DNA of 64,000 nucleotides from Pecten maximus (Eukaryota), in contig NC_047017.1 in the NCBI RefSeq assembly GCF_902652985.1, positions 41,478,001-41,542,000 of the forward strand. Direction: 5' to 3'. A model generated the notes under the pieces. That model had not been told where the DNA came from. It worked only from the letters and a program-made list of their open reading frames with translations, and did not search any database. This document shows positions 416 to 57,750 of this stretch, piece by piece. Position numbers and translations under genes: made by a program. The stretch's first letter is position 1. Each line of letters starts with the position of its first letter.

Positions 416-704
416 TGGCTCCTTAATCAGCCTATCCAGGACCTAATGAGAACTAAAGACACGTTTTCGCTGCTAGCAGAAGATACGTCAACAGGCATAC
501 AATTATCCTGTCCATTCAACCAAAAATAATTTTCGAGAGAAGGACGTAAGTTCGATCTTGACGTACTGTTAATGATTCACTTCAAATATCGATCTGTGAG
601 TGTAACGTCAAGATGCAAGACCATTCTATCTGTCACAAAGAGAAAATCGCTGTCACCGCTCAGTTGTTACCAATGCCGGAACTCACTGATGGTCAGCAAA
701 GCTG

Positions 705-3287
705 ATACCTTACTGGTGGTTACCAGTGTCTATACCTTATTGGTGGTTACCAGTGTCTATACCTTACTGGTGGTTACCAGTGTCTATACCTTACTGGTGG
801 TTACCAGTGTCTATACCTTACTGGTGGTTACCAGTGTCTATACCTTACCGGTGGTTACTAGTGTCTATACCTTACTGGTGGTTACCAGTGTCTATACCTT
901 ACTGGTGGTTACCAGTGTCAATACCTTACTGGTGGTTACCAGTGTCTATACCTTATTGGTGGTTACCAGTGTCTATACCTTACTGGTGGTTACTAGTGTC
1001 TATACCTTACTGGTGGTTACTAGTGTCTATACCTTACTGGTGGTTACCAGTGTCTATACCTTACTGGTGGTTACCAGTGTCTATACCTTACTGGTGGTTA
1101 CCAGTGTCTATACCTTACTGGTGGTTACTAGTGTCTATACCTTACTGGTGGTTACCAGTGTCTATACCTTACTGGTGGTTACCAGTGTCTATACCTTACT
1201 GGTGGTTACCAGTGTCTATACCTTACTGGTGGTTACCAGTGTCTATACCTTACTGGTGGTTACCAGTGTCTATACCTTACTGGTGGTTACCAGTGTCTAT
1301 ACCTTACTGGTGGTTACCAGTATCTATACCTTACTGGTGGTTACCAGTGTCTATACCTTACTGGTGGTTACCAGTGTCTATACCTTACTGGTGGTTACCA
1401 GTGTCTATACCTTACTGGTGGTTACCAGTGTCTATACCTTACTGGTGGTTACCAGTGTCTATACCTTACTGGTGGTTACCAGTGTCTATACCTTACTGGT
1501 GGTTACCAGTGTCTATACCTTACTGGTGGTTACCAGTGTCTATACCTTACTGGTGGTTACCAGTGTCTATACCTTACTGGTGGTTACCAGTGTCTATACC
1601 TTACTGGTGGTTACCAGTGTCTATACCTTACTGGTGGTTACTAGTGTCTATACCTTACTGGTGGTTACCAGTGTCTATACCTTACAGGTGGTTACCAGTG
1701 TCTATACCTTACTGGTGGTTACTGGTGTCTATACCTTACTGGTGGTTACCAGTGTCTATACCTTACTGTTGGTTACCAGTGTCTATACCTTACAGGTGGT
1801 TACCAGTGTCTATACCTTACTGGTGGTTACTGGTGTCTATACCTTACTGGTGGTTACCAGTGTCTATACCTTACTGTTGGTTACCAGTGTCTATACCTTA
1901 CAGGTGGTTACCAGTGTCTATACCTTACTGGTGGTTACTATTGTCAATACCTTACTAGTGGTTACCAGTGTCTATACCTTATTGGTGGTTACCAGTGTCT
2001 ATACCTTACTGGTGGTTACCAGTGTCAATATCTTACTGGTGGTTACCAGTGTCTATACCTTACTGGTGGTTACTAGTGTCTATACCTTACTGGTGGTTAC
2101 CAGTATCTATACCTTACTGGTGGTTACCAGTGTCTATACCTTACTGGTGGTTACTAGTGTCTATACCTTACTGGTGGTTACTAGTGTCTATACCTTACTT
2201 GTGGTTACTAGTGTCTATACCTTACTGGTGGTTACCAGTGTCTATACCTTACTGGTGGTTACTAGTGTCTATACCTTACTGGTGGTTACCAGTATCGATA
2301 TCTTACTGGTGGTTACCAGTGTCTATACCTTACTGGTGGTTACCAGTGTCAATACCTTACTGGTGGTTACCAGTGTCTATACCTTACAGGTGGTTACCAG
2401 TGTCTATACCTTACTGGTGGTTACCAGTGTCTATACCTTACTGGTGGTTACCAGTGTCTATACCTTACTGGTGGTTACTAGTGTCTACCTTACTGGTGGT
2501 TACCAGTGTCTATACCTTACTGGTGGTTACCAGTGTCTATACCTTACTGGTGGTTACTAGTGTATATACCTTACTGGTGGTTACTAGTGTCTATACCTTA
2601 CTGGTGGTTACTAGTGTCTATACCTTACTGGTGGTTACCAGTGTCAATACCTTACTGGTGGTTACCAGTGTCTATACCTAACTGGTGGTTACTAGTGTCT
2701 ATACCTTACTGGTGGTTACCAGTGTCTATACCTTACTGGTGGTTACTAGTGTCTATACCTTACTGGTGGTAACCAGTGTCTATACCATACTGGTGGTTAC
2801 CAGTGTCTATACCTTACTGGTGGTTACTAGTGTCTATACCTTACTGGTGGTTACTTGTGTCTATACCTTACTGGTGGTTACCAGTATCGATATCTTACTG
2901 GTGGTTACCAGTGTCTATACCTTACTGGTGGTTACCAGTGTCAATACCTTACTGGTGGTTACCAGTGTCTATACCTTACAGGTGGTTACCAGTGTCTATA
3001 CCTTACTGGTGGTTACCAGTGTCTATACCTTACTGGTGGTTACCAGTGTCTATACCTTACTGGTGGTTACTAGTGTCTATACCTTACTTGTGGTTACCAG
3101 TGTCTATACCTTACTGGTGGTTACTAGTGTCTATACCTTACTGGTGGTTACCAGTGTCTATACCTTACTGGTGGTTACTAGTGTCTATACCTTACTGGAG
3201 GTTACCAGTGTCTATACCTTACTGGTGGTTACTAGTGTCAATACCTTACTGGTGGTTACCAGTATCGATATCTTACTGGTGGTTACC
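705..3287. repeat. 27-bp minisatellite, ~95 copies
   Basis: Unit ataccttactggtggttaccagtgtct. Source of the spurious TLLVVTSVY and IPYWWLPVS ORFs. Confidence 0.98.
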
Positions 3288-4891
3288 TATGTCGATGTAA
3301 AAATTTAAAATGTAAATGAGGTTTTGCGAGTACTGATACTCGATTTGTGGTTGCCAAAGGTGATTCATTATTGGTCAAATTGGGTCAGTGCTGCTATCTG
3401 ATTGGTTGTTGCGGGTGCTGATATTGCCCGGTCCTGGCCAGTGACGATATCCCATTAGCCTGTGCTGCTACCTAATAAGTCGTTGTCAATGTCGTCATAT
3501 CATATTATTTGTTGTCAACACTGACACTTCATTAGTTGTTGCCAAAGCAATGCTTTTTTCAATTGCTGTTGTTATGGTCGTAGATTTATTTTTCCCCAAT
3601 TCTGATTTAACCGTATGTATACATGTATATTTAACCAATGTCGGGGTAGACTGGTGCTAAATTGTGACCAATATCAGTGTTTAAAATATGAACTTTGTAT
3701 GTTTGACAATGTTAGTGTTGTTTGTATGTTAATATGCCTATCAGCAATATAAACTCAAACATCTTATTGGAAAATCATTCAATGCATACGTTTGTTAGGA
3801 AATAATTAAGTAAAATTGGTATTGTAACAAATGACATAAATATTTATCAATGGTTGGTGCTCGAGTAGTTATTTAAGAGATACCTCACTGTGATAAGTTC
3901 TAAATTATACATGATAGCAAGACAAACATTATTATTACTCCAATAAAACAATGGGTCCTGATAGACTTCGGATAGTTCGCTGTCAGTAGGGACAGTCGGC
4001 TATGTTTAATTACAACGTGTTTACGGCTACTTCGCCTGGGGTCGCTGAGTGTTAGATTTACCGTGGTTTTATTGTACAGCACTTTGGACACACTGATCAG
4101 TATGTACAAGAGCTGTTTAAGAGAATATCACGGACCTTAACAAGCCTTTTATCACGCCCTTCGTTTACACCCTTGTATGCTAGTTACTTCTGTAAATATT
4201 CATCATTGAAGGTACACCTTAACACAGAAGTCCTGTGTCGTTGACAACTCAGTTTGAAATTGACACCGGGTGCTGACAGAGTGTCGATCGATAGACCTGC
4301 CGTGAGGAACTCCCGGGGTGGAGGGCTGCAGAGGCTGGCTTCTCGGACAATTGGCGCGGAAACCAGCGACCTCATTATACCACACTTCGGCTCTTGTCAC
4401 CAGTTGTGTTGCTAAGCACTTTGTTCACAGCAGCTCAATAGAAGGACATTACAAAACGGACGAGGTGTTCAGATCACCGACTGTTTTATCGAAAACCGAT
4501 TATCGGTTATGTCCTAACATGTAGGACGGCTTTTGTGGAGAGTCGAAGCATTATCAGGTGTAGAGCCACTGAAACCTCAGCATCCACTGCTGGGATGATA
4601 CAATAGTTTCATAATATCCTCGGGTATAGAATGTCACAGTCGATAATTACATCGGTGAATAATTGACAAAATATGAGAATAGCCTGGACGATATAAATAT
4701 ATTGGTAGGTTTACCCCTAGTTGCACAGTACAGGCGATACGTATGCGACCAGTACTTCTATCTATTATTCATTGAATCAGCCATCTACGAAAACATGATG
4801 GCTGACAGCTAACAATCATGTACAATCATATCTCACAAAACATACCGGAACAAAGCCCTTCATATCAATTATGTAACGGATCCGTCCATTC

Positions 4892-9190: not shown

Positions 9191-9306
9191 GTGTCTATAT
9201 TTTAATAAATTATCTGTAGTCCTACATGTAGTTCGGTTATATTGGCGACATGTGACAGACAAGATGATACTAGATATATCCCATCAACGTTTACAGTAAA
9301 CAAGCT

Positions 9307-10602
9307 CTGTCTGTTACTGTACTGCCTGTTACTGTACTGCCTGTTACTGTACTGTCTGTTACTGTACTGCCTGTTACTGTACTGCCTGTTACTGTACTGC
9401 CTGTTACTTTACTGGCTGTTACTGTACTGCCTGTTACTGTACTGCCTGTTACTGTACTGGCTGTTACTGTACTGGCTGTTACTGTACTGCCTGTTACTGT
9501 ACTGCCTGTTACTGTACTGGCTGTTACTGTACTGCCTGTTACTGTACTGCCTGTTACTGTACTGGCTGTTACTGTACTGCCTGTTACTGTACTGCCTGTT
9601 ACTGTACTGGCTGTTACTGTACTGCCTGTTACTGTACTGCCTGTTACTGTACTGCCTGTTACTGTACTGGCTGTTACTGTACTGCCTGTTACTTTACTGG
9701 CTGTTACTGTACTGCCTGTCACTGTACTGCCTGTTACTGTACTGGCTGTTACTGTACTGCCTGTTACTGTACTGGCTGTTACTGTACTGGCTGTTACTGT
9801 ACTGCCTGTTACTGTACTGCCTGTTACTGTACTGGCTGTTACTGTACTGCCTGTTACTGTACTGGCTGTTACTGTACTGCCTGTTACTGTACTGCCTGTT
9901 ACTGTACTGGCTGTAACTGTACTGCCTGTTACTGAACTGCCTGTTACTGTACTGCCTGTTACTGAACTGTCTGTTACTGTACTGCCTGTTACTGTACTGC
10001 CTGTTACTTTACTGGCTGTTACTGTACTGCCTGTTACTGTACTGGCTGTAACTGTACTGCCTGTTACTGTACTGGCTGTAACTGTACTGCCTGTTACTTT
10101 ACTGGCTGTTACTGTACTGCCTGTTACTGTACTGCCTGTTACTTTACTGGCTGTTACTGTACTGGCTGTAACTGTACTGCCTGTTACTGTACTGCCTGTT
10201 ACTGTACTGCCTGTTACTGTACTGCCTGTTACTTTACTGGCTGTTACTGTACTGCCTGTTACTGTACTGCCTGTTACTGTACTGCCTGTTACTTTACTGG
10301 CTGTTACTGTACTGCCTGTTACTGTACTGTCTGTTACTGTACTGCCTGTTACTGTACTGGCTGTAACTGTACTGCCTGTTACTGTACTGGCTGTAACTGT
10401 ACTGCCTGTTACTGTACTGCCTGTTACTGTACTGGCTGTAACTGTACTGCCTGTTACTGTACTGCCTGTTACTGTACTGCCTGTTACTTTACTGGCTGTT
10501 ACTGTACTGCCTGTTACTGTACTGGCTGTAACTGTACTGCCTGTTACTGTACTGGCTGTAACTGTACTGCCTGTTACTGTACTGCCTGTTACTGTACTGC
10601 CT
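9307..10602. repeat. 15-bp minisatellite, ~86 copies
   Basis: Unit ctgttactgtactg(c/g). Confidence 0.98.
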
Positions 10603-11910
10603 GGTCATTTGTGTCCGTTTATTACTTCGCTGCTGCAAGAATCTGATTACTGGGTAGCGTCCGTCTGGAAATCTAGTCTACAATATAAATATGGAAACAT
10701 CACGTCATATTCGATTAGGGTTATATTAGCACGTGTTTTGTAAAGCCACGTTGCTATGGTACTGGGTAAGTAACGGCGAAGGTATCACACCTCTATCAAC
10801 GTCAATGGACGACTGTTTACCGCTGTAAACACGGGTGTTTGGTTCTGGCCGAAGTAACGCGAGCTTTCACCAATAATTGATAGAAATCTATTTTAGGATC
10901 AGCAACGTGATTGAGTCGAAAATGATTGTTTTGTCATTCATCTCTTAGAGTGTAGTACCTAATGCTTATTACGAAAGTAGTAGTATTTAGTTTTAAATCC
11001 AATCTTTGTTAAAACAGCTTCGTTAACGCCGCTTTGTTTTCCTTCCCTATTGTAATTCGAGTTTTCTTTTCCAGAGATGAAAAAAAAACTTTGTCAGTTA
11101 TACTTGTGCTTGACGCAACGCTCTTTAAATGTGTTAATTTGATGTTTAAAATATTGACGTGAAAAGTACAAAGTAGCGTTCAATTACCTAGAGAGAAATG
11201 TTCTGATATTGAAAATGAGGAATGGGTGATAGCAGAAAGAAATTATATGCACTAACTCTTCAATGAAGAAATTAGGCAGGTAGATAAGGTAAAATAAGCC
11301 TGGGATTACTTGTGGCGCACAGTTTAAACGCTTCCTCTCCAGGTAAACATAATGTACCCACTGGCCCTACCCTTTATATACTGTCGCTTACTACAGAACG
11401 CATCACCACACCTCTCTTCAACATTCTATAAATAGTTATATGTTATGGCAATAAGTTGTCGTATCTATATATGGATTCATGTTTGTAGTTTGTAGTTACC
11501 AGTATTGAACCGAAGACGTTCCCAGTTTTTTCAGCAAAGCCATTATCAATGTCAACTGTGTCATGCAGGAACAAAATGAAATGTAATGTCTTGATATATA
11601 TATCTATATATAGGTATCGAAATCTAGCTCTAATTCTTAGCTAACCATCAACAGATTCCATTTAGGGTGGTGACGAATTTATGTTATGAACGCAAAGGAA
11701 CATTTCTACGCTCATCATGTGGAATGTCAACTTCCGGTTTTGCAAATTGAAAATAATCAATAAAAAGAGGAGAATAATGAGCAAATGTGATAAAAAGATA
11801 GAAACAGAATATGAAATTTAGGATAAAATAGAATACCGAATATGAAATTAACGACATTTTTGAACTGATTTGAACTCCTAACTGATTAACACTCACTTAG
11901 TAACGACAGT

Positions 11911-12625
11911 ACCTGTTATATGTTATATACATGTTATATGTACACCTGTTATATGTACACCTGTCATATGTACACCTGTCATATGTACACCTGTTATATG
12001 TACACCTGTCATATGTACACTTGTCATATGTACACCTGTTATATGTACACCTGTCATATGTACACCTGTCATATGTACACCTGTTATATGTACACCTGTC
12101 ATATGAACACCTGTCATATGTACACCTGTCATATGTACACCTGTCACATGTACACCTGTCATTTGTACACCTGTCATATGTACACATGTTATATGTACAC
12201 CTGTCATATGTACACCTGTCACATGTACACCTGTCATTTGTACACCTGTCATATGTACACATGTTATATGTACACATGCTATATGTACACCTGTTATATG
12301 TACACCTGTCATATGTACACCTGTCATATGTACACCTGTTATATGTACACCTGCCATATGTACACCTGTCATATGTACACCTGTTATATGTACACATGTT
12401 ATATGTACAACTGTCATATGTACACCTGTCATATGTACACCTGTCATATGTACACCTGGTATATACACACCTGTCACATGTACACCTGTCATATGTACAC
12501 CTATCATATGTACACATGTTATATGTACACCTGTCATATGTACACCTGTTATATGTACACATGTCATATGTACACCTGTCACATGTACACCTGTTATATG
12601 TACACATGTCATATGTACACCTGTT
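11911..12625. repeat. 15-bp minisatellite, ~47 copies
   Basis: Unit tacacctgt(c/t)atatg. Confidence 0.98.
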
Positions 12626-12699
12626 CTCGAGGCTATCCTATCCTTAAGTCTCGTTAGACAACAAATTATCATATGAGGAAAAAAGGTTCTCAATAATGA

Positions 12700-13995
12700 A
12701 TCTCGTAACATAGATGTCTGTCTCAATGATCAATCTTGGTACATAGATGTCGCTGTCTCAATGATTAATATTGGTACATAGATGTCGCTGTCTCAATGAC
12801 CAATCTTAATACATAGATGTCTGTCTCAATGACCAATCTTGGTACATAGTTGTCTGTCTCAATGACCAATCTTGGTACATAGATGTCTGTCTCAATGACC
12901 AATCTTGGTACATAGATGTCGCTGTCTCAATGACCAATCTTGGTACATAGATGTCGCTGTCTCAATGACCAATCTTGGTACATAGGTGTCTGTCTCAATG
13001 ATCAATCTTGGTACATAGTTGTCTGTCTCAATGACCAATCTTGGTACATAGATGTCTGTCTCAATGACCAATCTTGGTACATAGATGTCGCTGTCTCAAT
13101 GACCAATCTCGTAACATAGATGTCGCTGTCTCAATGACCAATCTTGGTGCATAGATGTCTGTCTCAATGACCAATCTTGGTACATAGATGTCTGTCTCAA
13201 TGACCAATCTTGGTACATAGATGTCACTGTCTCAATGGTCAATCTTGGTACATAGATGTCTGTCTCAATGACCAATCTTGGTACATAGATGTCACTGTCT
13301 CAATGACCAATCTTGGTACATAGATGTCTGTCTCAATGACCAATCTTGGTACATAGATGTCACTGTCTCAATAATCAATCTTGGTACATAGATGTCTGTC
13401 TCAATGACCAATCTTGGTACATAGATGTCACTGTCTCAATGACCAATCTTGGTACATAGATGTCTGTCTCAATGACCAATCTTGGTACATAGATGTCTGT
13501 CTCAATGACCAATCTTGGTACATAGATGTCGCTGTCTCAATGACCAATCTTGGTACACAGATGTCTGTCTCAATGACCAATCTTGTTACATAGATGTCGC
13601 TGTCTCAATGACCAATCTTGGTACATAGATGTCTGTCTCAATGACCAATCTTGGTACATAGATGTCACTGTCTCAATGACCAATCTTGGTACATAGATGT
13701 CGCTGTCTCAATGACCAATCTTGGTACATAGATGTCTGTCTCAATGACCAATCTTGGTACATAGATGTCGCTGTCTCAATGACCAATCTTGGTACACAGA
13801 TGTCTGTCTCAATGACCAATCTTGTTACATAGATGTCGCTGTCTCAATGACCAATCTTGGTACATAGATGTCTGTCTCAATGATCAATCTTGGTACATAG
13901 ATGTCTGTCTCAATGACCAATCTTGTTACATAGATGTCGCTGTCTCAATGATCAATCTTGGTACATAGATGTCGCTGTCTCAATTATTAACCATG
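12700..13995. repeat. 33/35-bp minisatellite, ~38 copies
   Basis: Unit ctcaatgaccaatcttggtacatagatgtc[gc/ac]tgt. Confidence 0.97.
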
Positions 13996-15776: not shown

Positions 15777-16882
15777 TTCCATGGTACGAACAGGTACTTA
15801 TTTATCTACTCACTTGTAGTTGTGACGACAATGGCGTACATTGCAAACATTTTTTTAAGCAACAAAACGCTACCCGTAACGCCTCGTCAATATCTGCCGC
15901 TAGGCAAATGATACAAATAAACCAGAGAGCAATCGAAATATTCACTACAAATTAGTGTTGATAGGTCAATCAACCAACGAACAATGCGATTTTCATTTTA
16001 TGGAAAGTACGCACGTACCATGTGCGTCACGTGATCGCCTGACATGCTCAGGCAGGTGCTTTTATTAATTCAGAAGCAATGAGTACCCCTCTTTAGTGTG
16101 ATGATTATACTTTGTACTTACCGGGACACATGCAACATTATGTCGACTAGTCCAAGGTCTGATTTGTTATTTATATCGGGTCATAAATACATGTACAGCC
16201 TTCGGCATGTGTTTTTTGTGGATCTTAGTTTACTCGGGGTGGACGTACTCTTAATTGATATCACTTTATTATCAGGACATTAAGTTGACCTTTAACGATT
16301 TCTGAAGTCAGATCACCATTTCTCAGTAACCTGAAGGGTCAAAACATATGTTAAATAAATAAATGTTCCTTCGATCCAATCTCATTTTGATTAGTCAAAA
16401 ACATACTCTGAAAGGGTCTACCGTAAGCCCTGATAATGTGTTATGAAAAATGGAATGGATGAAACTTTTCCGTCAAAAGTGGACATACAAATGGTATATT
16501 TTTATCGTGAATATCGGAGATAATATGACGTTATAAAGACATTATAGTGGTATTTATGTAAAGTTTAGCTGCATATCGCATCCTTTTAGCAGGTACAGTG
16601 TTTGGCTGGAATGTCTTGAACGCCGTAGCTATTACAAATGGTATATACATTGTAGCTGTTACATATGGTATATAACTGTTACATATGGTATATAGCTGTT
16701 ACATATGGTATATAGCTGTTACATATGGTATATCATATAAACATAATGCGTTTGGTTTTCCTTAACTATACGCATAAGGTATATCTTGAGTTGTTACCCG
16801 ACTCTCTATAAAAATGTAAATGAAGTTATGCAATAATATAATGAAGTTATACATTATATCATTTTTTTATAATGAAGTTATA

Positions 16883-17718
16883 GATCATCTTTCTTACCGT
16901 CAGCTGTAGAATTATGGATCTCCGTACCTCCAGAAATCAGAAATAACCCTTCAATGACAATCTTCAAAAAATTCCTTAATAGAAATCTTACACGTCCTCC
17001 TTCACACAGAAACTATGGAAAACGTAAATTGCAAATTTTACACACCAGACTTCGCTTACATTGCAGTACATTAAAAGAACATTTGTCCAATAGAAACTTA
17101 TTTGACAGCCCGTTTTGTACGTGTGGATATATTGAATACAACTTTCATTTCCTCTTCATGTGTGAAAAATATCAAAATCAAAGAAAACAGTTCATTTTTA
17201 CCCTAGATATGGACTTAAACACCGATATACTGTTATGAGGACACCAAAACTTATCTGATGAAGTAAAATGAAACAATTGTTGCTGCGGTGCAGACTTTTA
17301 TTCTTTATTCTAAAAGGTTTGACTAAAAGGAATCAGAATATATATCATAGTTAACCCCCAGTAAAAAACCAAATTGAAGCTATGAATGTGATAGTTATGT
17401 ATCAATGTAAAATATTCAAACAACTCTCAACAAATTTTAGTTATATATGTTCCACCAATGTTCTTTAACTGACATTTCATTCCTTGAATGTACATATTAT
17501 GTTTTAATACATTTTCATTTATAGAACTACATATATAAATTGTAAAATGATTAAGTAGTGTTGTGAATCGACCACTATGCTACATAAAATTATGCTGACC
17601 TTTTAAGGGAGATCTAAGCTTTAAGCTTGTTTCCAGATCCTTTTGCAAATTATGAACTGATATTTGGTATTTTTGTATGCAATGTCTATGAATTAAATGA
17701 AATACGGTTTAAACTAAA
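16883..17718 (+). mobile_element. 5'-truncated LINE (CR1/L2-group-like) ORF2 C-terminus and 3' UTR
   Basis: SSFLPSAVELW...ILHTRLRLHCSTLKEHL...SPFCTCGYIEYNFHFLFMCEKY: post-RT region with CCHC-type motif, in-frame stops downstream. Ends in a ...gtttaaactaaa tail. Confidence 0.8.
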
Positions 17719-30346: not shown

Positions 30347-30577
30347 ATAGCAGCTTCCTGCTGGCCAACGCACGGATCGTGGAGTACCCTATAGTATATT
30401 GTAACGACGGGTTCTGTAAACTCTCCGGATATAACCGAGCGGAAGTGATGCAAAAAAGTTGCACGTGTAGTTTTATGTACGGTGATCTAACGGACCAGGA
30501 CACTGTTCTAAAAATAGAACAATCTTTTGAGGGTGTGGAACAAGAACAAGTGGAAATTCTATTATACAAGAAAAATA
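30347..30577 (+). CDS. eag: eag K+ channel, first coding exon visible in window (PAS domain, N-terminal half)
   Basis: Acceptor ttacag|AT, donor AAT A|gtaagt. Translates (D)[45 protein letters not shown]...EILLYKKN, the canonical EAG PAS sequence. Phase 1/1. Confidence 0.96.
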
Positions 30578-34619: not shown

Positions 34620-34748
34620 GAACACCGCTATGGCTGCTGCTGCACGTTGCGCCAATCAAAAACGAGAAGGACCAGGTCGTACTCTTCTTGTGCACATTCA
34701 AAGACATAACTGCTTTAAAACAACCAATCGACGAGGAAGGTGGCAAAG
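34620..34748 (+). CDS. eag: eag exon (PAS/PAC C-terminal half)
   Basis: ccacag|GA...AAA G|gtaagc. Translates (R)[42 protein letters not shown]. 129 nt, phase 1/1. Not in the ORF track in this frame. Confidence 0.96.
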
Positions 34749-37513: not shown

Positions 37514-37638
37514 CGGGTATGAGCAAATTCGCGCGCCTCGCTCGATCTGTGACGCGGAACAAGTCTACACTCCTCCAGTTCTCATCACACATACCCAACA
37601 CAAAGTTCGACAACTCAAAACCATCACAACTCGCAAAT
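37514..37638 (+). CDS. eag: eag exon (post-PAS linker, N-terminal CaM-binding region)
   Basis: atacag|CG...AAT|gtaagt. Translates (A)GMSKFARLARSVTRNKSTLLQFSSHIPNTKFDNSKPSQLAN, matching the EAG GLSKFARLARSVTR motif. 125 nt, phase 1/0. Confidence 0.94.
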
Positions 37639-37831: not shown

Positions 37832-38227
37832 ATGATGAACCTAAACGCGGATGTTCTGCCCCAGTATCGTCTTGAGGCACCTAAGACTCCGCCTCATATC
37901 ATTCTGCATTACTGCTTGTTCAAAACCATATGGGACTGGATGATATTGACCTTGACATTTTATACAGCGGTCACGGTACCGTATAACACTGCCTTCAGAA
38001 ACAAGACAATGGACCAGGTGCCACTGCTCGTCCTGGACAGTATCGTCGATGTTGTGTTTTTCGTTGATATCATTCTTAATTTTCATACGACATTTGTGGG
38101 TCCTAGTGGTGAAATCATCTCCGACCATAAAATTATTCGTATGAACTATTTAAAGAGCTGGTTTGTTATTGATCTGCTGTCGTGTCTCCCGTATGACGTC
38201 TTCAATGCCTTCCAATATGTAGATGAC
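37832..38227 (+). CDS. eag: eag exon (S1-S3)
   Basis: tttcag|ATG...GAC|gtaagt. Contains [19 protein letters not shown]...WDWMIL...NFHTTFVG...[13 protein letters not shown]. Phase 0/0. Confidence 0.97.
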
Positions 38228-39105
38228 GTAAGTATGATAGGGATATGATCTACAGTCTAGCTATTCAAAAAATAGACAAGTGATTATTTCCTCTTTTTAA
38301 TATATGATTAATATTTACCAAAGTATCATTCTGCAAAGGAAGGATCAACTCAGGCAAATGAGGAATGGATCAAATTGATTTTTTGTTAAATTCATCAAGG
38401 AAACATCCCGACAATGTTTCTAAAAATTGATAAAATGATGACACAATAAATAAACAAATTTAGAGTAATAACGATACAAGACCAGGTGTTCCAGAATAGT
38501 ACGCGTATTCTGCTTCAAAGACAACATATAAATCAATCTCAAATCAATGGAAATGATAGCCGTTTAACGGGCAGCAAACACGTCACAATTCATACCTTTA
38601 CACGGAAATAGATAATTTCCAAATCAGACCCTGGTACTGACCATAAAATGTTCGGATATTGTTCATAACCTCGCATACTTGTTTTTGAAACCATGATATC
38701 TGTATAAGCCCCTCATACGGGACCCTTGGCGTGTTGATATACCTGATGGTTCCGTTGTCACCATCCTTCATGTATATCTCATTTTGAGGGTGTGACTTGG
38801 CTGATGGCATGTTATGACAGGTGCTGAAGTTGAATCAGAACACATTTACCATTCCGGAACACCTGATTTCATTCTCTTTGAACTTTTACACCGGTTTTGA
38901 TGGAGATCTATATTATCGAATTATTTCATCGCTTTAGTTTGTTTGCATATCGATATTCTCTGCTATTTTTTAAAACGAAATTCCCGTAAAGAAACGTTCA
39001 TAAAAAGGGAATGTAAATTTTCTTATCGATGAATTTGTCGTCATAAAAAAGTTGTGACCTTTTTGTCGTAATTGTTTTTACATGTTGCCTTTTCCTTCTT
39101 TTCAG

Positions 39106-39523
39106 GGGATAAGCACACTGTTCAGCGCGTTAAAGGTCGTTCGTCTCTTAAGGCTCGGGAGAGTAGTCCGAAAGTTGGATCATTATTTAGAATACGGAGC
39201 CGCCATGCTGGTTTTGCTCATTCTTGTTTTCATACTGTTTGCTCATTGGTTTGCTTGTATATGGTATTCTATCGGCCTAACAGAACTTCAAAGTGGTTTG
39301 GAATATGGCTGGCTTTCTACACTAGCCAATACCACATTTGAACCTTTTATATGGACTAACACCACTACAAGAACTATGCTCACCGGGGGCCCAGGCAAGG
39401 GCATGCGCTATCTCACCTCGCTCTATTTCACGTTGTCATGCATGACTGGTGTCGGCTTTGGCAACGTGGCAGCCGCAACTGAACACGAGAAACTGTTTTC
39501 TATATTCATGATGATCATTGGAG
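39106..39523 (+). CDS. eag: eag exon (S4, S5, turret, pore helix/filter, start of S6)
   Basis: tttcag|GGG...GGA G|gtaaga. S4 LKVVRLLRLGRVVRKLDHY, S5 AHWFACIWY, two NTT sequons in the turret, pore SLYFTLSCMTGVGFGNVA. Phase 0/1. Confidence 0.97.
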
Positions 39524-44333: not shown

Positions 44334-44533
44334 CACTGCTCTATGCAACAATATTTTCCAATGTGACAACCATATTTCAACAGTTCTACGCCAATTTCGC
44401 ACGCTACCATGATATGTTGAACAGTGTCCGCGACTTCATGAAATTGCATGATGTCCCCAAGATCCTTGGAGAGCGCGTGATGGACTACATTGTGTCCACG
44501 TGGGCCATCACTAAGGGTATTGATGCCACTAAG
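44334..44533 (+). CDS. eag: eag exon (S6 and C-linker)
   Basis: tttcag|CA...AAG|gtaata. Translates (A)[66 protein letters not shown]. Phase 1/0. Confidence 0.97.
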
Positions 44534-44877: not shown

Positions 44878-45130
44878 GTTTTGAATTATTGTCCTAAAGA
44901 CATGAAGGCCGACTTGTGTGTTCATCTCAACCGAAAAGTCTTCATGGAGCACCCGGCCTTCCGGTTGGCCAGCGATGGTTGTTTGAGAGCGCTCGCCATG
45001 CATTTCAACATGACGCACAGTGCACCCGGTGACCTGATATTTCACCAAGGCGAAAGCCTTGATGCCTTATGCTTTGTTGTGTCAGGGTCACTAGAGGTCA
45101 TTCAGGACGATGAGGTGGTCGCCATACTGA
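44878..45130 (+). CDS. eag: eag exon (C-linker and CNBHD, first part)
   Basis: ttccag|GTT...CTG A|gtacgt. Translates [40 protein letters not shown]...[19 protein letters not shown]. Phase 0/1. Confidence 0.96.
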
Positions 45131-46926: not shown

Positions 46927-47123
46927 GTAAAGGTGACGTATTTGGCGACAACTTTTGGAAAGAACAGTCGATCGGCCAATCCACAGCCAATGTTCGAGCT
47001 CTAACCTACTGTGATCTCCACACCATCAAAAGGGTTCGGATATTAGAAGTTCTAGAATTCTACCACGCCTTCGCCAACTCATTCGCCAGGAATCTCACAC
47101 TAACGTACAACCTCCGTCACAGA
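46927..47123 (+). CDS. eag: eag exon (CNBHD, second part, with intrinsic ligand YNL)
   Basis: ccgcag|GT...AGA|gttagt. Translates [12 protein letters not shown]...[12 protein letters not shown]...[14 protein letters not shown]. Phase 1/0. Confidence 0.96.
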
Positions 47124-47602: not shown

Positions 47603-49057
47603 TTGATTTTCCGGAAAGTTGCCGATGTCAAAAAAGAGAAAGAACTGGCAGAAAAGAGGAAAAATGACCCACCATTGGAGTTGTCGAGTGATCATCCAGT
47701 TCGTAAGCTTATTTCACGATTTCGAAAAATAAGCGATGCGAAGGCCATGCAACCAAATAATGATCCCGAGCGCGGACGTATGTCTGCCATGGATATGGCC
47801 GAACGACCGCGGAGTTTTACGAGGCTTATCAATGTCTCCGAGGGCTCTCAAGGCGGCTCACCTGTCCCAAAAATAGGAGGTGGAGCTTCGAAATGGGGGA
47901 AAATAATGAACGGGAGTGTGCCGTCGGAAGGGACATCGGATAACAACCAAAATAAATTAAATGTTGAAAAGGAGAAGGATGATTTACAGACAAAGATAAA
48001 TGAGGCACCAAAAGCGACAGTAAAACCCTTATCTAAATGGGGCAAAATGATGGCAAAACCTCCGGAACCGATAAATGAAGCTCCGGAGGACGATCAGAAA
48101 TCTAATCTGAAAAAGACAGATTCAACCGACAGTGGAATTCTCCGTAGTAATGTGAAATTAGACCAATTAGCGGAAGACACTGTGAGCGAGGGCCCCCAGA
48201 CATTGAGGGAGTCGACATCCGGGGCACTCTCAGTAGCCGAACGTCAAATGCTGACGTCTCTCTATGATATAAGGTTAGAAATCAAGGAGGAAATAGACGT
48301 GTTACACCAAAAAATGACAAGAATAGATGAACAAATGTCGGAAATGCTCCGGATGTTTTCTCCTAGCACCACTCCGTGTTCGTCACAAGAGTCGACATAT
48401 CCAGTGTCGAAAATTACTTCACCACGTAATACTACTACCAACACCACGGCAAGTATCGATAACACTCCAAAATCGTCAGTAGAATCCTCGCCCAAAAGGC
48501 GAGTGGCTGACGTGAACTTTATCGCAAAATCGTCGACGACGTCAGCACCACGACCAAACTCGCCGGCTAGTGTTAAGTCACGTGATTCGCAATCAAAGAC
48601 GTCTCAGGGCTCTTCCGTAGATATATCTAGAGGGTCTCAGAATGACTCTCGTTCTTCCTCGCCAGCTGGCCGAAGTTCGACACCTGTAAAGACTTCAAAC
48701 ATCTCGTCGATGTGTGATGATGTTCTTAAAATGGATGTGAAAACTAAGTTGATTAAAGCTCACCCAAAAGGCCTGCAAAACAAATCACCCAGTGCTCGAT
48801 ACAGTGCACACGTAAGCAACCAGCAAAGACAACAACATTCCCCACCGAAACATGTTCAACTTAGCAGCTCATCGGAGCCCTCGGGATCTGTAAGTGATTC
48901 GGGGTCCCAACAGTCCCAACCGTCCCACGGGGCTCATTCGTCTCCCGGAGACGGAAAGTCAGGGTCAGATCGAGGTCAACAGGTGTTGGCTGGACTTCGG
49001 ATTCCCTCGGACGATAACGACGCACACATTAAAGACAGAGACTTAGATATCTTATGA
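47603..49057 (+). CDS. eag: eag last coding exon (CaM-binding segment, tetramerising coiled coil, long S/P-rich tail)
   Basis: tttcag|TTG. LIFRKVADVKKEKE...HPVRKLISRFRK as in EAG; coiled coil LYDIRLEIKEEIDVLHQKMTRIDEQMSEML; TGA at 49055-49057. Confidence 0.95.
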   Translation: MIFRKVADVKKEKELAEKRKNDPPLELSSDHPVRKLISRFRKISDAKAMQPNNDPERGRMSAMDMAERPRSFTRLINVSEGSQGGSPVPKIGGGASKWGKIMNGSVPSEGTSDNNQNKLNVEKEKDDLQTKINEAPKATVKPLSKWGKMMAKPPEPINEAPEDDQKSNLKKTDSTDSGILRSNVKLDQLAEDTVSEGPQTLRESTSGALSVAERQMLTSLYDIRLEIKEEIDVLHQKMTRIDEQMSEMLRMFSPSTTPCSSQESTYPVSKITSPRNTTTNTTASIDNTPKSSVESSPKRRVADVNFIAKSSTTSAPRPNSPASVKSRDSQSKTSQGSSVDISRGSQNDSRSSSPAGRSSTPVKTSNISSMCDDVLKMDVKTKLIKAHPKGLQNKSPSARYSAHVSNQQRQQHSPPKHVQLSSSSEPSGSVSDSGSQQSQPSHGAHSSPGDGKSGSDRGQQVLAGLRIPSDDNDAHIKDRDLDIL

Positions 49058-49979: not shown

Positions 49980-51050
49980 AGGTATGTCTGACTTACTGTC
50001 GCTAACGTGTGTGTTTGGTACAGGGATGGTCGACTAGCTATCTCAAATTACTTGTGTATCGGTACAGGGATGGCCGAATCATTGTTGTTAATCTGTGTAT
50101 CAGTACAGGGACCGTTACCTAACCGTCGATAACCTATGTACCGGTACAAGGACCGTCGACTCACTGTCACTAATCTGTGTACCAGTACAGGGACGGCCGA
50201 CTCACCGACGCTAACTTGTGTACCGGTACAACGACCGTCGACTCACTGTCGGTAATCTGTGTACCAGTACAGGGACGACCGACTCACCGACGCTAACTTG
50301 TGTACCGGTACAAGGACGTCGACTCACTGTCGGTAATCTGTGTACCAGTACATGGACGGCCGACTCACCGACGCTAACTTGTGTACCGGTACAAGGACGT
50401 CGACTCACTGTCACTAATCTGTGTATCAGTACATGGACGGCCGACTCACCGACGCTAACTTGTGTACCGGTACAAGGACGTCGACTCACTGTCACTAATC
50501 TGTGTATCAGTACATGGACGGCCGACTCACCGACGCTAACTTGTGTACCGGTACAAGGACGTCGACTCACTGTCGGTAATCTGTGTACCAGTACATGGAC
50601 GGCCGACTCACCGACGCTAACTTGTGTACCGGTACAAGGACGTCGACTCACTGTCGGTAATCTGTGTACCAGTACAGGGATTGTGGACTAACAATCGCTA
50701 ACCTGTGTATCGGTACTGGAATGGCTGACTAAATGTCACTGACCTGTGCATAGATGCAGGGGTGGTCAACTCACATTCGCAAACCTATTAGTCGGTACAG
50801 GGACGGCCGACTCGCCATCGCTAACCTGTTTATCGGCACAGGGACGGCCGTCTCACTGTCGCTAACCTGTTTATCGGCAAATGGACGGCTTTACTAACTG
50901 TCGATAACCTGTTGATTGGTACAGGGTCGGCCGACTCATTGTCGCTAACCTGTCTAACGGCACAGGGACGGCCGACTCATTTTCGCTAACCTGTTGATCG
51001 GTACAGGGACGGCCGTTTCACGTGACGGCCGAATCGCTGTCGCTAACTTC
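49980..51050. repeat. ~41-bp monomer array with an 81-bp dimeric homogeneous core (~50150-50680)
   Basis: 81-bp period (e.g. 50341 vs 50422). Flanks are divergent ggtacagggacggccgactcactgtcgctaacctgt monomers. Confidence 0.93.
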
Positions 51051-53563: not shown

Positions 53564-54829
53564 TATGGAACGCCATATCCGTCATATATCGTATAGAAAA
53601 TATTAAATGCATTGATATTTTATTATTTTATAGGTTTTCTTCTTTATATGATTTGATTCTGTCATATTGTATGATGTCATTATTATATGATTTGATTTTG
53701 TCATTATATTGTATAATGTCATAATTATATTATTTGATTTTGTCATTATATTGTATGACGTCATTATTATATTATTTGATTTTGTCATTATATTGTATAA
53801 TGTCATAATTATATTATTTGATTTTGTCATTATATTGTATGACGTTATGATTATATTATTTGATTTTGTCATTATATGATATAATGTCATGATTATATTA
53901 TTTGATTTGTCATTATATTGTATGATGTCATGATTATATTATTTGATTTTGTCATTATATTGTATAATGTCATAATTATATTATTTGATTTTGTCATTAT
54001 ATTGTATGACGTCATGATTATATTATTTGATTTTGTCATTATATGGTATAATGTCATAATTATATTATTTGATTTTGTCATTATATTGTATAATGTCATA
54101 ATTATATTATTTGATTTTGTCATTATATTGTATGATGTCAGGATTATATTATTTGATTTTGTCATTATATTGTATGACGTCATGATTATATTATTTGATT
54201 TTGTCATTATATGGTATGATGTCATAATTATATTATTTGATTTTGTCGCTATATTGTATGATGTCATGATTATATTATTTGATTTTGTCATTATATTGTA
54301 TGATGTCATCACATTATTTGAATCTATCATTATATCATATGGTGTCATTATTATACTCTTTAGATTTACCAATATTTGCTTGGATTTTAACGTTATATTA
54401 CTTAGTTTCAACATTATGTTATATGCATTCGTTATGATATGATTCAGTACATATACTATATAATGATATATAATAATCGATATTTTATTGCTATATCGTT
54501 TCATCATCATACAGTGTCTTATTCTTTGACATCATGATATGATTTCACAACTTCATTGTAATGGAAGAACCATATACAACGGACTCCGAATTTTATAAAT
54601 TAAAATATATTATTGATATAGAATCATATATTGATGATATCAAATAATGTAATGTTGACATCATATAATATAATGGTAAAATCATGTCATAAAATTAATT
54701 CTTATGTTACTGATATCAAACCATGTATTGGTGAAATCAAATTATATAATGATAACACCATATGATATAATGAAAATAGCAATCCCCGTAGTAGTTTTAT
54801 GAAATATGTGACAGCTATGGCGATCCATA
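53564..54829. mobile_element. Foldback/MITE element with internal 42-bp array
   Basis: TIRs tatggaacgccatatccgtcatat / atatgtgacagctatggcgatccata, CA on both outer sides (possible 2-bp TSD). Left arm carries tatttgattt motifs, right arm the inverse atcaaat. Confidence 0.75.
53645..54350. repeat. 42-bp AT-rich tandem array, ~17 copies
   Basis: Unit attatattatttgattttgtcattatattgtatgatgtcatg. Confidence 0.95.
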
Positions 54830-55118: not shown

Positions 55119-55986
55119 TCAGTCACGTAGCTCTGCGTCTTACCACTAGTCCACCGGCCCACTAACCCTAGGTATAATTCATTTAATGAAACGTTTCCGT
55201 TTGGTTCAGATTTACTCATCTCATCATCAATGGGTGAACTATTCCACATCAGTATTTCACATTGAACACGGGCCTCTAAGGGGAGAAACCTATACAATTT
55301 GGGTAGTAACCAATGTAATATGAATTTTTGGATTACGCCGTGTGTTTTGTAATTATATTACATGTGTACATTGTGACGTCATAATCAAGGCAATAGATAT
55401 AGGTTGAAAAAAGGAATGTGAGTTTTCAATAATGGCCGGAAAAACCGTTTTTTTCTTTGCTGGACTGATTGAAAAATCCTGCACCATACCTTTAAAAAAG
55501 GTGTCCATTTCATAAATAATTTTGTCACAAAATGTGAGGATATGCTCAAACCAATCAAAGCAATCTCCTATAAAGCGGAAACCCATTCTATATACATGGT
55601 CTGTGTATTGTAGTTGGACGTGTAGTTATTGGACTAATAACGTAACGACCGCCTACATAGTACAGTGTAATCAGTGGATACAGCCTTGGTCGTCGTTATC
55701 GGGAGTCAAACACTACACAACAAAGCCATCACACAGGTACAAGCGTGATAGAATGTTTAATGACGAAAAAGAACAACAATGTATATGTAGAGTTACTTGA
55801 AGATAATACATTATCCGCGGATATCTTGATTTTTGTTAATGATGTGATACACAAAACCAACTTTATCAACGTTAAGCAAGAAAAAGTTTATCAGTGACGT
55901 CCCCGGGTAACCGGAAGTTCGGACATTAGACTTACCGTCAATACAAAGGTACCCGATTTACCGTACGACAAGGATATTAAACCTCA

Positions 55987-56236
55987 CGACTCCCAGGGAC
56001 ACACATGTATGTACGACTACCAGGGACACACATGTATGTACGACTACCAGGGACACACGTGTATGTACGACTACCAGGGACACACATGTATGTACGACTA
56101 CCAGGGACACACATGTATGTACGACTACCAGGGACACACATGGATGTACGACTACCAGGGACACACATGGATGTACGACTACCAGGGACACACATGTATG
56201 TACGACTACCAGGGACACACATGGATGTACGACTAC
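55987..56236. repeat. 27-bp tandem array, ~9 copies
   Basis: Unit acgactaccagggacacacatgtatgt. Confidence 0.95.
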
Positions 56237-56514
56237 TTACCGACTCGCATGTTGTCCAGATAACCATTACTGTTACAGTAATTCGATCGTATGTTTTATT
56301 GAATGAGGACATTCTAATGGTACATATGAAAATAGGGTTTTCCAAGATATATATATATATATTATACGTACCTGTGACATGTAGGGGAGTTTGAAGTGTG
56401 TTCTATCGGGTTTCAAAAGCCGACATCAAAGGACGGCCTGATTGGAGTGAATAATTAGAATCGATTATTTCTAAACAAAACGTCGATTAATACCCGAATC
56501 AAACAAAACGTCGA

Positions 56515-57245
56515 GTCACGATAATAGGCGGAACCACTGAGCACAAAGTCTGCATTAAACAATTCTAGGCCAAATATCCAGTCACAATAATAGGCGGAAC
56601 CACTGAGCACAAAGTCTGCATTAAACAATTCTAGGCCAAATATCCAGTCACAATAATAGGCGGAACCACTGAGCACAAAGTCTGCATTAAACAATTCTAG
56701 GCCAAATATCCAGTCACAATAATAGGCGGAACCACTGAGCACAAAGTCTGTATTAAACAATTCTAGGCCAAATATCCAGTCACGATAATAGGCGGAACCA
56801 CTGAGCACAAAGTCTGCATTAAACATTCTAGGCCAAATATCCAGTCACAATAATAGGCGGAACCACTGAGCACAAAGTCTGCATTAAACAATTCTAGGCC
56901 AAATATCCAGTCACGATAATAGGCAGAACCACTGAGCACAAAGTCTGCATTAAACAATTCTAGGCCAAATATCCAGTCACAATAATAGGCGGAACCACTG
57001 AGCACAAAGTCTGCATTAAACCATTCTAGGCCAAATATCCAGTCACAATAATAGGCGGAACCACTGAGCACAAAGTCTGCATTAAACAATTCTAGGCCAA
57101 ATATCCAGTCACGATAATAGGCAGAACCACTGAGCACAAAGCCTGCATTAAACAATTCTAGGCCAAATATCCAGTCACAATAATAGGCAGAACCACTGAG
57201 CACAAAGTCTGCATTAAACATTCTAGGCCAAATATCCAGTCACGA
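56515..57245. repeat. 66-bp tandem array, ~11 copies
   Basis: Unit agtcacaataataggcggaaccactgagcacaaagtctgcattaaacaattctaggccaaatatcc. Confidence 0.97.
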
Positions 57246-57264
57246 AGAATCGGTGGCACTCCTG

Positions 57265-57750
57265 AACAACAAAACAGACTATTTCAAAACATACACTTAC
57301 AATGATGGACAGAACAATAGAAAACACGCTTACTCAACATACACTCACAATGGCGGACGGAACAACGGAAATGACGCCTACAAAACCTTCACTTACAATG
57401 GCAGACTGAAAAACAGACAGGACGCTAACAAAACCTTCACTTACAATGGCAGACTGAAAAACAGACAGGACGCTAACAAAACATACACTTACAATGGCAG
57501 ACTGAAAAACAGACAGGACGCTAACAAAACATACACTTACAATGGCGGATGGAACAACAGAAAAGACGCTCGCAAAACATAGATTCACAATGGCAGATGG
57601 AACAACAGAAAAAAGCTTTAAAACATAGATTCACATTTGCGGACTGAATAGCACAAAAGACACTTACAAAACCTTCACTTACAATTGCGGACGGAACAAC
57701 AGAAATGACACTTACAAAACCTTTACTTATAATGGCGGACGGAACAAGAA
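57265..57750. repeat. 48-bp tandem array, ~10 copies, divergent
   Basis: Unit caaaaccttcacttacaatggcagactgaaaaacagacaggacgctaa. Confidence 0.92.

Follow-up and report, generated by a model that had tools for sequence, protein, structure and literature searches.

A glycine in place of the filter hydroxyl residue in the eag potassium channels of bivalves and gastropods

The eag (Kv10) gene of the scallop Pecten maximus encodes a selectivity filter in which the residue expected to supply a hydroxyl to the innermost ion site, S4, is a glycine. The codons at positions 39445–39462 of the window, by which we mean the whole 64,000-nucleotide stretch of DNA that was analysed, read T434–G435–V436–G437–F438–G439 (TGVGFG) on the forward strand by translation and phmmer alignment, with the Gly codon at 39448–39450. 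They lie in an intact eag pore exon, and reading them confirms the motif proposed in the initial annotation. On the sequences compared, the glycine appears to be a fixed trait of bivalves and gastropods, wider than one genome.

Structure and identity of the scallop eag gene

The gene was delimited by exact matches to the KCNH1-like protein held by NCBI for Pecten maximus (XP_033735836.1; P0131), with codons split by junctions skipped. Residues 28–1160 fall in order on nine exons of the window, all on the forward strand, with GT/AG ends and a final TGA, and the match for residues 1–26 lies outside the window, some 25 kb upstream of it. The PAS/eag domain occupies exon 2 (30347–30577; exact protein mapping and Pfam) and ends in exon 3 (34620–34748; exact protein mapping), and is followed by a linker in exon 4 (37514–37638; mapping and spliced contigs), which is joined to 37832 in contigs of runs X6 and X14, and by segments S1–S3 in exon 5 (37832–38227; mapping and contigs). 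Exon 6 (39106–39523), supported by mapping, contigs and alignment, is bounded by AG and GT, is identical to the matching part of the protein and encodes residues 321–459, which comprise segments S4 and S5, the turret, the pore helix, the filter and the start of S6 and include L423 and L450. S6 and the start of the C-linker, with S468, F477 and F481, are found in exon 7 (44334–44533; alignment), the C-linker and the start of the cyclic-nucleotide-homology domain (CNBHD) in exon 8 (44878–45130; mapping and Pfam), the CNBHD with a YNL motif, which we take to be the intrinsic ligand, in exon 9 (46927–47123; mapping), and the C-terminal tail up to the TGA stop in exon 10 (47603–49057; mapping). Pfam recognises the N-terminal PAS/eag domain as PAS_9 at residues 39–135 (E 1.3e-22), then Ion_trans at 220–479 and cNMP_binding at 575–654 (six-helix core, C-linker and cyclic-nucleotide-homology domain). 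The gene is an intact scallop eag and no pseudogene, and the mapping of nine exons in order to the TGA bears out the earlier view that the reading frame is otherwise whole.

The non-coding sequence around these exons is rich in repeats. Long simple tandem repeats with spurious open frames occur at window positions 530–3308, 9209–10743, 11890–12729, 50211–50691, 53893–54531 and 55898–57582, and several of them fall inside the first intron of eag, which spans roughly 55 kb. A 120-residue open frame at 16876–17238 resembles the tail of a LINE-type retroelement. Short high-copy repeat pieces are present in intron 5 (38478–38526 and 38732–38767); contigs of run X2 join these pieces on opposite strands, and they are possibly the ends of an inverted-repeat element.

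In the phmmer alignment Gly435 stands opposite the Ser of the rat Eag1 filter TSVGFG (S436, a number counted from that alignment) and the second Thr of the KCNH5 filter TTIGFG. Since hERG S624 is described as the equivalent of KcsA T75, a residue that builds site 4 from its carbonyl and its hydroxyl (PMC2229534), this register upholds the initial placing of the glycine at the hERG S624/KcsA T75 position. Judged from sequence only, the carbonyl cage for ion sites S1–S3 (V/I-G-Y/F-G) is present as VGFG; the Ser/Thr hydroxyl that forms the S4 floor of the canonical four-site filter (T/S-x-G-Y/F-G) is absent, and Gly435 takes its place. An AlphaFold prediction of the full protein from a 37-row alignment has a mean pLDDT of 48, with filter residues 437–441 below 50.

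The best PDB profile matches, at 1558 and 1496 bits, belong to the Eag subfamily, against 750 bits for hERG. KCNH5 and KCNH1 entries score 1450–1558 bits and KCNH2 741–750, and HCN (at most 162 bits) and CNG (at most 129 bits) are not the closest; in this table, which holds no full-length Elk row, the protein appears to stand nearer to Eag than to either Erg or Elk. The nearest homologues, among the best 120 listed per search, carry the names eag, KCNH1 and KCNH5. The scallop gene has PAS, six-helix Ion_trans and cNMP-homology domains in common with the known members of the subfamily (Drosophila eag; rat and human Kv10.1, or KCNH1, PDB 5K7L and 8EOW; Kv10.2, or KCNH5, PDB 7YID), together with the register of the pore exon and an xVGFG/xIGFG filter ending in the GFG triplet typical of Eag. 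It differs from them in the Gly that replaces Ser/Thr at the S4 position, in an S6 IFG motif changed to IFS (a feature of all molluscs) and in F477 and F481 at the junction of S6 and the C-linker. By orthology we place it in the Eag subfamily, with a filter that reads as non-canonical for four sites.

The GGT codon is one base away from a Ser codon, and the initial annotation had warned of a consensus error or polymorphism at 39448. Contigs from all four runs compared, out of 24 listed, carry no alternative letter at that site: X2 is a DNA-run contig that may derive from the assembly's own source DNA and hence is not independent, X6 and X8 are presumed RNA from two other studies, and X14 comes from a second organism (organism B). 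The agreement is one of contigs and not of raw reads, and rare alleles are invisible at this level because contigs drop rare variants. Beyond 39523, contigs of X6 and X14 continue into what looks like the next exon, and the X14 contig splices 38227 to 39106; of the ten listed differences between organism B and the exon (12 in the piece), nine leave the protein unchanged, including one in the adjacent filter codon, G437. Contigs, orthologues and the intact exon mapping together rule out assembly error, private polymorphism or pseudogene, whose probability we put at practically nil, and the orthologues that share the Gly already refute such an artefact by themselves.

A divergent extra paralogue beside an ordinary eag is likewise unsupported: the genome search, in which six candidates were scored, found at least one eag-type locus and at least three other KCNH loci, and the filters of those three are TSVGFG or TSIGFG, all canonical. 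Among 30 distinct scallop K+ filter loops, taken from the best 30 of 86 PF07885 matches and the first five loci after six out-of-frame chance matches had been removed by eye, 25 have Thr, four have Ser and one, this eag only, has Gly. Of the 86 Ion_trans_2 matches, many stand in tandem clusters of Kv-like exons (G000:C8, C4, C5, C2, C17 and C18), for example four within 27 kb on C5.

Distribution, origin and companion changes

The alignment of eag orthologues and paralogues across molluscs and annelids that had been suggested at the outset gives Gly in all 37 named species of bivalves (19/19) and gastropods (18/18) in which the filter is covered, and Ser in annelids. The Gly-type species are both marine and freshwater and extend to early-branching forms, namely the protobranch Solemya and the limpets Patella and Lottia. 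Ser is present in both Octopus species with the filter covered (O. bimaculoides and O. sinensis) and in a fragment 87% like octopus, as well as in Lingula, the nemerteans Tubulanus and Lineus, the annelids Owenia, Capitella and Helobdella, and arthropods; all 94 further proteins added from one homologue search read TSVGFG. A redundant set of 549 fetched proteins, isoforms included, contained 510 with the filter motif, of which 83 have Gly, 423 Ser or Thr and four Gln, and the VGFG remainder of the filter is unaltered in all 83 Gly sequences; those inspected among the other 39 are fragments of other regions. After clustering at 50%, 144 of 150 representatives retain the motif and three have Gly, all with mollusc-like flanks. 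The S4 position varies among these KCNH representatives between S, T and, in 2 of 150, Q. The Erg-like KCNH proteins P0372, P0374, P0526 and P0527 (ENA/Logan) carry Gln at this position, within TQVGFG or AQVGFG.

When the trait columns and one long fish row are dropped, a 35-row tree of eag sequences separates the 23 Gly rows from all others by a branch with an SH-aLRT of 87, with Octopus next, and one change suffices for the Ser/Gly distribution. A quick tree of 36 eag rows on all columns gives the same branch a support of 98. The simplest reading of these trees, for a sample without chitons and scaphopods, would be a single gain before bivalves and gastropods split in the Cambrian; an earlier gain followed by reversion in cephalopods would be a less simple account of the same sample. 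No eag of a chiton, scaphopod, aplacophoran, nautilus, squid or Aplysia was named among the best 120 listed of 2590, 458 and 5301 matches or in three cluster look-ups, which is not evidence of absence. For a possible Ser-to-Gly change in coleoids through A-to-I editing, there was no KCNH/eag match in a supplementary file from each of PMC4384741, PMC8382921 and PMC9068888, the editing-site tables probably being elsewhere. Block by seawater Na+, which hERG S624A loses, is a weak candidate for the driver of the change, since Ser persists in marine animals (octopus, Lingula, annelids) and Gly in freshwater snails.

Other residues were fixed along with the glycine. S280, L423, L450, F481 and L539 hardly vary among the 23 Gly rows, whereas Octopus lacks them, as do nearly all of the 12 remaining Ser rows, and F481 divides the types exactly (23/23 Gly-type rows against 0/13 Ser-type rows). 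Two S6 residues, S468 (codon at window 44357–44359) and F477 (with F481 within 44384–44398), are present in all 24 mollusc rows, Octopus included. Compensation of the Gly by the co-fixed sites is a hypothesis only, since these sites share a single branch with the Gly and their covariation is no demonstration of it. Counted from the alignment, S468 corresponds to human KCNH1 G496 and KCNH5 G465, so that molluscs carry Ser at a KCNH1 disease site. In the available parts of two reports, Glu or Arg at these glycines gives no homomeric current together with dominant gain of function (PMC12931077; bioRxiv 10.64898/2026.02.09.704863).

Mutants at the S4 position and the probable behaviour of the channel

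A series of engineered mutants (KcsA T75G, T75A and T75C, Shaker T442A, Kv1.5 T480A, Kv2.1 T377A, Kv3.1 T400A, hERG S624A, MthK T59A and NaK2K T63A) have lost the hydroxyl at the position affected in scallop eag. They are, however, laboratory changes on an unadapted background, whereas the Gly of scallop eag arose in nature, is a fixed trait of two classes and was joined by other changes that are also fixed. The literature search found, among the matches listed, no engineered Gly in a KCNH channel (S624G). The results that follow are given as the papers cited report them, those on KcsA T75G, Kv1.5 T480A and Shaker T442A at second hand. In KcsA, T75G and T75C remove S4 and lower occupancy of S2 (bioRxiv 10.1101/2023.04.17.537168), and T75G recovers more slowly from inactivation (review PMC7337057). 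Kv1.5 T480A and Shaker T442A keep their selectivity (bioRxiv 10.1101/2023.04.17.537168), and so, by an unchanged Na/K ratio, do Kv2.1 T377A and Kv3.1 T400A, which are reported to have no inactivation; their conductances fall from 10.3 to 4.9 pS and from 24.1 to 5.6 pS, and activation shifts by about -60 and -80 mV, respectively (PMC7231921). The nearest case, hERG S624A, stays K+-selective and activates like the wild type, but its inactivation is impaired and external Na+ blocks it less (PMC2229534, PMC2151557); S624 is also involved in membrane stability and in the binding of blockers (PMC11325228). In simulations the Thr side chain at S4 touches a residue of the inner helix through which the gates are coupled (PMC13578941).

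On this basis we lean towards the view that the Gly-type eag of bivalves and gastropods forms a voltage-gated channel that remains selective for K+ but has a weakened innermost site, lower conductance and altered gating, because every voltage-gated case in these papers, including one from KCNH, is selective. With only a carbonyl ring left at S4, K+ occupancy there and at S2 would fall as in KcsA T75G, and unitary conductance would drop some 2–4 fold with selectivity kept, as in the voltage-gated channels tested. Loss of the contact between the side chain and S6 that couples gate and filter could shift activation or closing and remove filter inactivation, and pore blockers that use the S4 site would probably act more weakly; a matching adjustment of the gate may come from F481, L450 and L423, which were fixed together with the glycine in a mollusc lineage that already had S468 and F477. 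These analogies seem to favour lower conductance, shifted gating and a different response to blockers over altered selectivity, which would be the less likely outcome because K+ selectivity survives in hERG S624A, Kv2.1 T377A and Kv3.1 T400A. In KCNH channels a shift of gating is uncertain, because hERG S624A activates as wild type. The analogies come mostly from Ala, not Gly, mutants, and Gly gives backbone freedom that Ala does not.

HCN channels, which belong to the same CNBD-channel superfamily and are weakly selective, also naturally lack a hydroxyl at the innermost position, where they have the Cys of CIGYG; they combine this Cys with GYG and hyperpolarisation gating, whereas the scallop gene is an Eag orthologue with GFG. 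In HCN2, according to the available part of the source, replacing this Cys with Ser or Ala leaves the reversal potential unaltered (PMC3506978), which, with the selectivity and wild-type activation of hERG S624A (PMC2229534), fits a nearly neutral change: the S4 hydroxyl would matter little in Eag, and Gly, fixed once and locked in by later changes, would leave a channel that behaves like the Ser type. That a single origin suffices on the tree and that the position is somewhat variable elsewhere in KCNH agree with this, but we consider it rather unlikely, given that none of the 37 named species has returned to Ser, that 29 of 30 scallop filter loops keep Ser/Thr, and that the Kv2.1, Kv3.1 and KcsA T75 mutants changed conductance (PMC7231921, PMC12658365).

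A greater departure, in which evolution would have turned the filter of the only eag into a three-site one permeable to Na+, giving a weakly selective, depolarising cation channel activated by depolarisation in bivalve and gastropod neurons, strikes us as distinctly unlikely. It draws on the loss of selectivity in MthK T59A and NaK2K T63A and on the argument that four sites are necessary for K+ selectivity (bioRxiv 10.1101/2023.04.17.537168; PMC12658365), on simulated KcsA T75A, which is poorly selective and lets Na+ pass (same sources), on simulated T75A/E71A, equally permeable to K+ and Na+ (bioRxiv 10.1101/2023.04.17.537168), and on the Cys of HCN (PMC3506978). Against it, the Shaker T442A, Kv1.5 T480A, Kv2.1, Kv3.1 and hERG mutants all stay selective in the reports available, and with only one eag-type locus found, a count that is a lower bound, the ordinary eag K+ current would be lost. 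It is very improbable that the protein conducts poorly or not at all and has been retained as a subunit that signals through its PAS domain, CNBHD and tail or modifies partners, although fly eag does have conductance-independent roles. The pore helix, filter and S6 are almost invariant over the 23 full-length Gly-type rows, which speaks against such a subunit; the conductance of about 0.4–0.5 pS of simulated KcsA T75A speaks for it (bioRxiv 10.1101/2023.04.17.537168). So does the Ser that molluscs have in S6 in place of the Gly whose changes G496E/R leave human KCNH1 with no homomeric current (PMC12931077; bioRxiv 10.64898/2026.02.09.704863), but Ser is far smaller than Glu or Arg.

Novelty and meaning for mollusc eag

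No paper containing TGVGFG was returned by a full-text search that leaves most subscription papers, figures and alignments outside its reach, and among the matches listed none was found, by title or start of abstract, on mollusc eag or on a natural Gly at the S4 position. The Gly-type eag filter of the two mollusc classes is apparently undescribed, and may have been seen before because it is visible in public annotations. The initial annotation had reasoned that a motif shared with related species would be real but not novel; it is real and stands in the sequences of relatives, but the reasoning on novelty has no force as yet, the motif being in no paper searched. A natural non-hydroxyl residue at the S4 position is itself already known from the Cys of HCN (PMC3506978).

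Conflicting laboratory mutants keep two questions in debate: whether K+ selectivity needs four ion sites, and by what means the S4 residue links the filter to the gate. Here evolution has run the Gly version and kept it in two animal classes, with octopus eag as a near Ser-type control. If a channel without S4 proves selective and working, it would show how to compensate for the loss; if it leaks Na+, the role of eag in snail and clam neurons changes. With chitons, scaphopods and nautilus added, the glycine may also serve as a rare marker, at a single site, of the branching order in dispute among mollusc classes.
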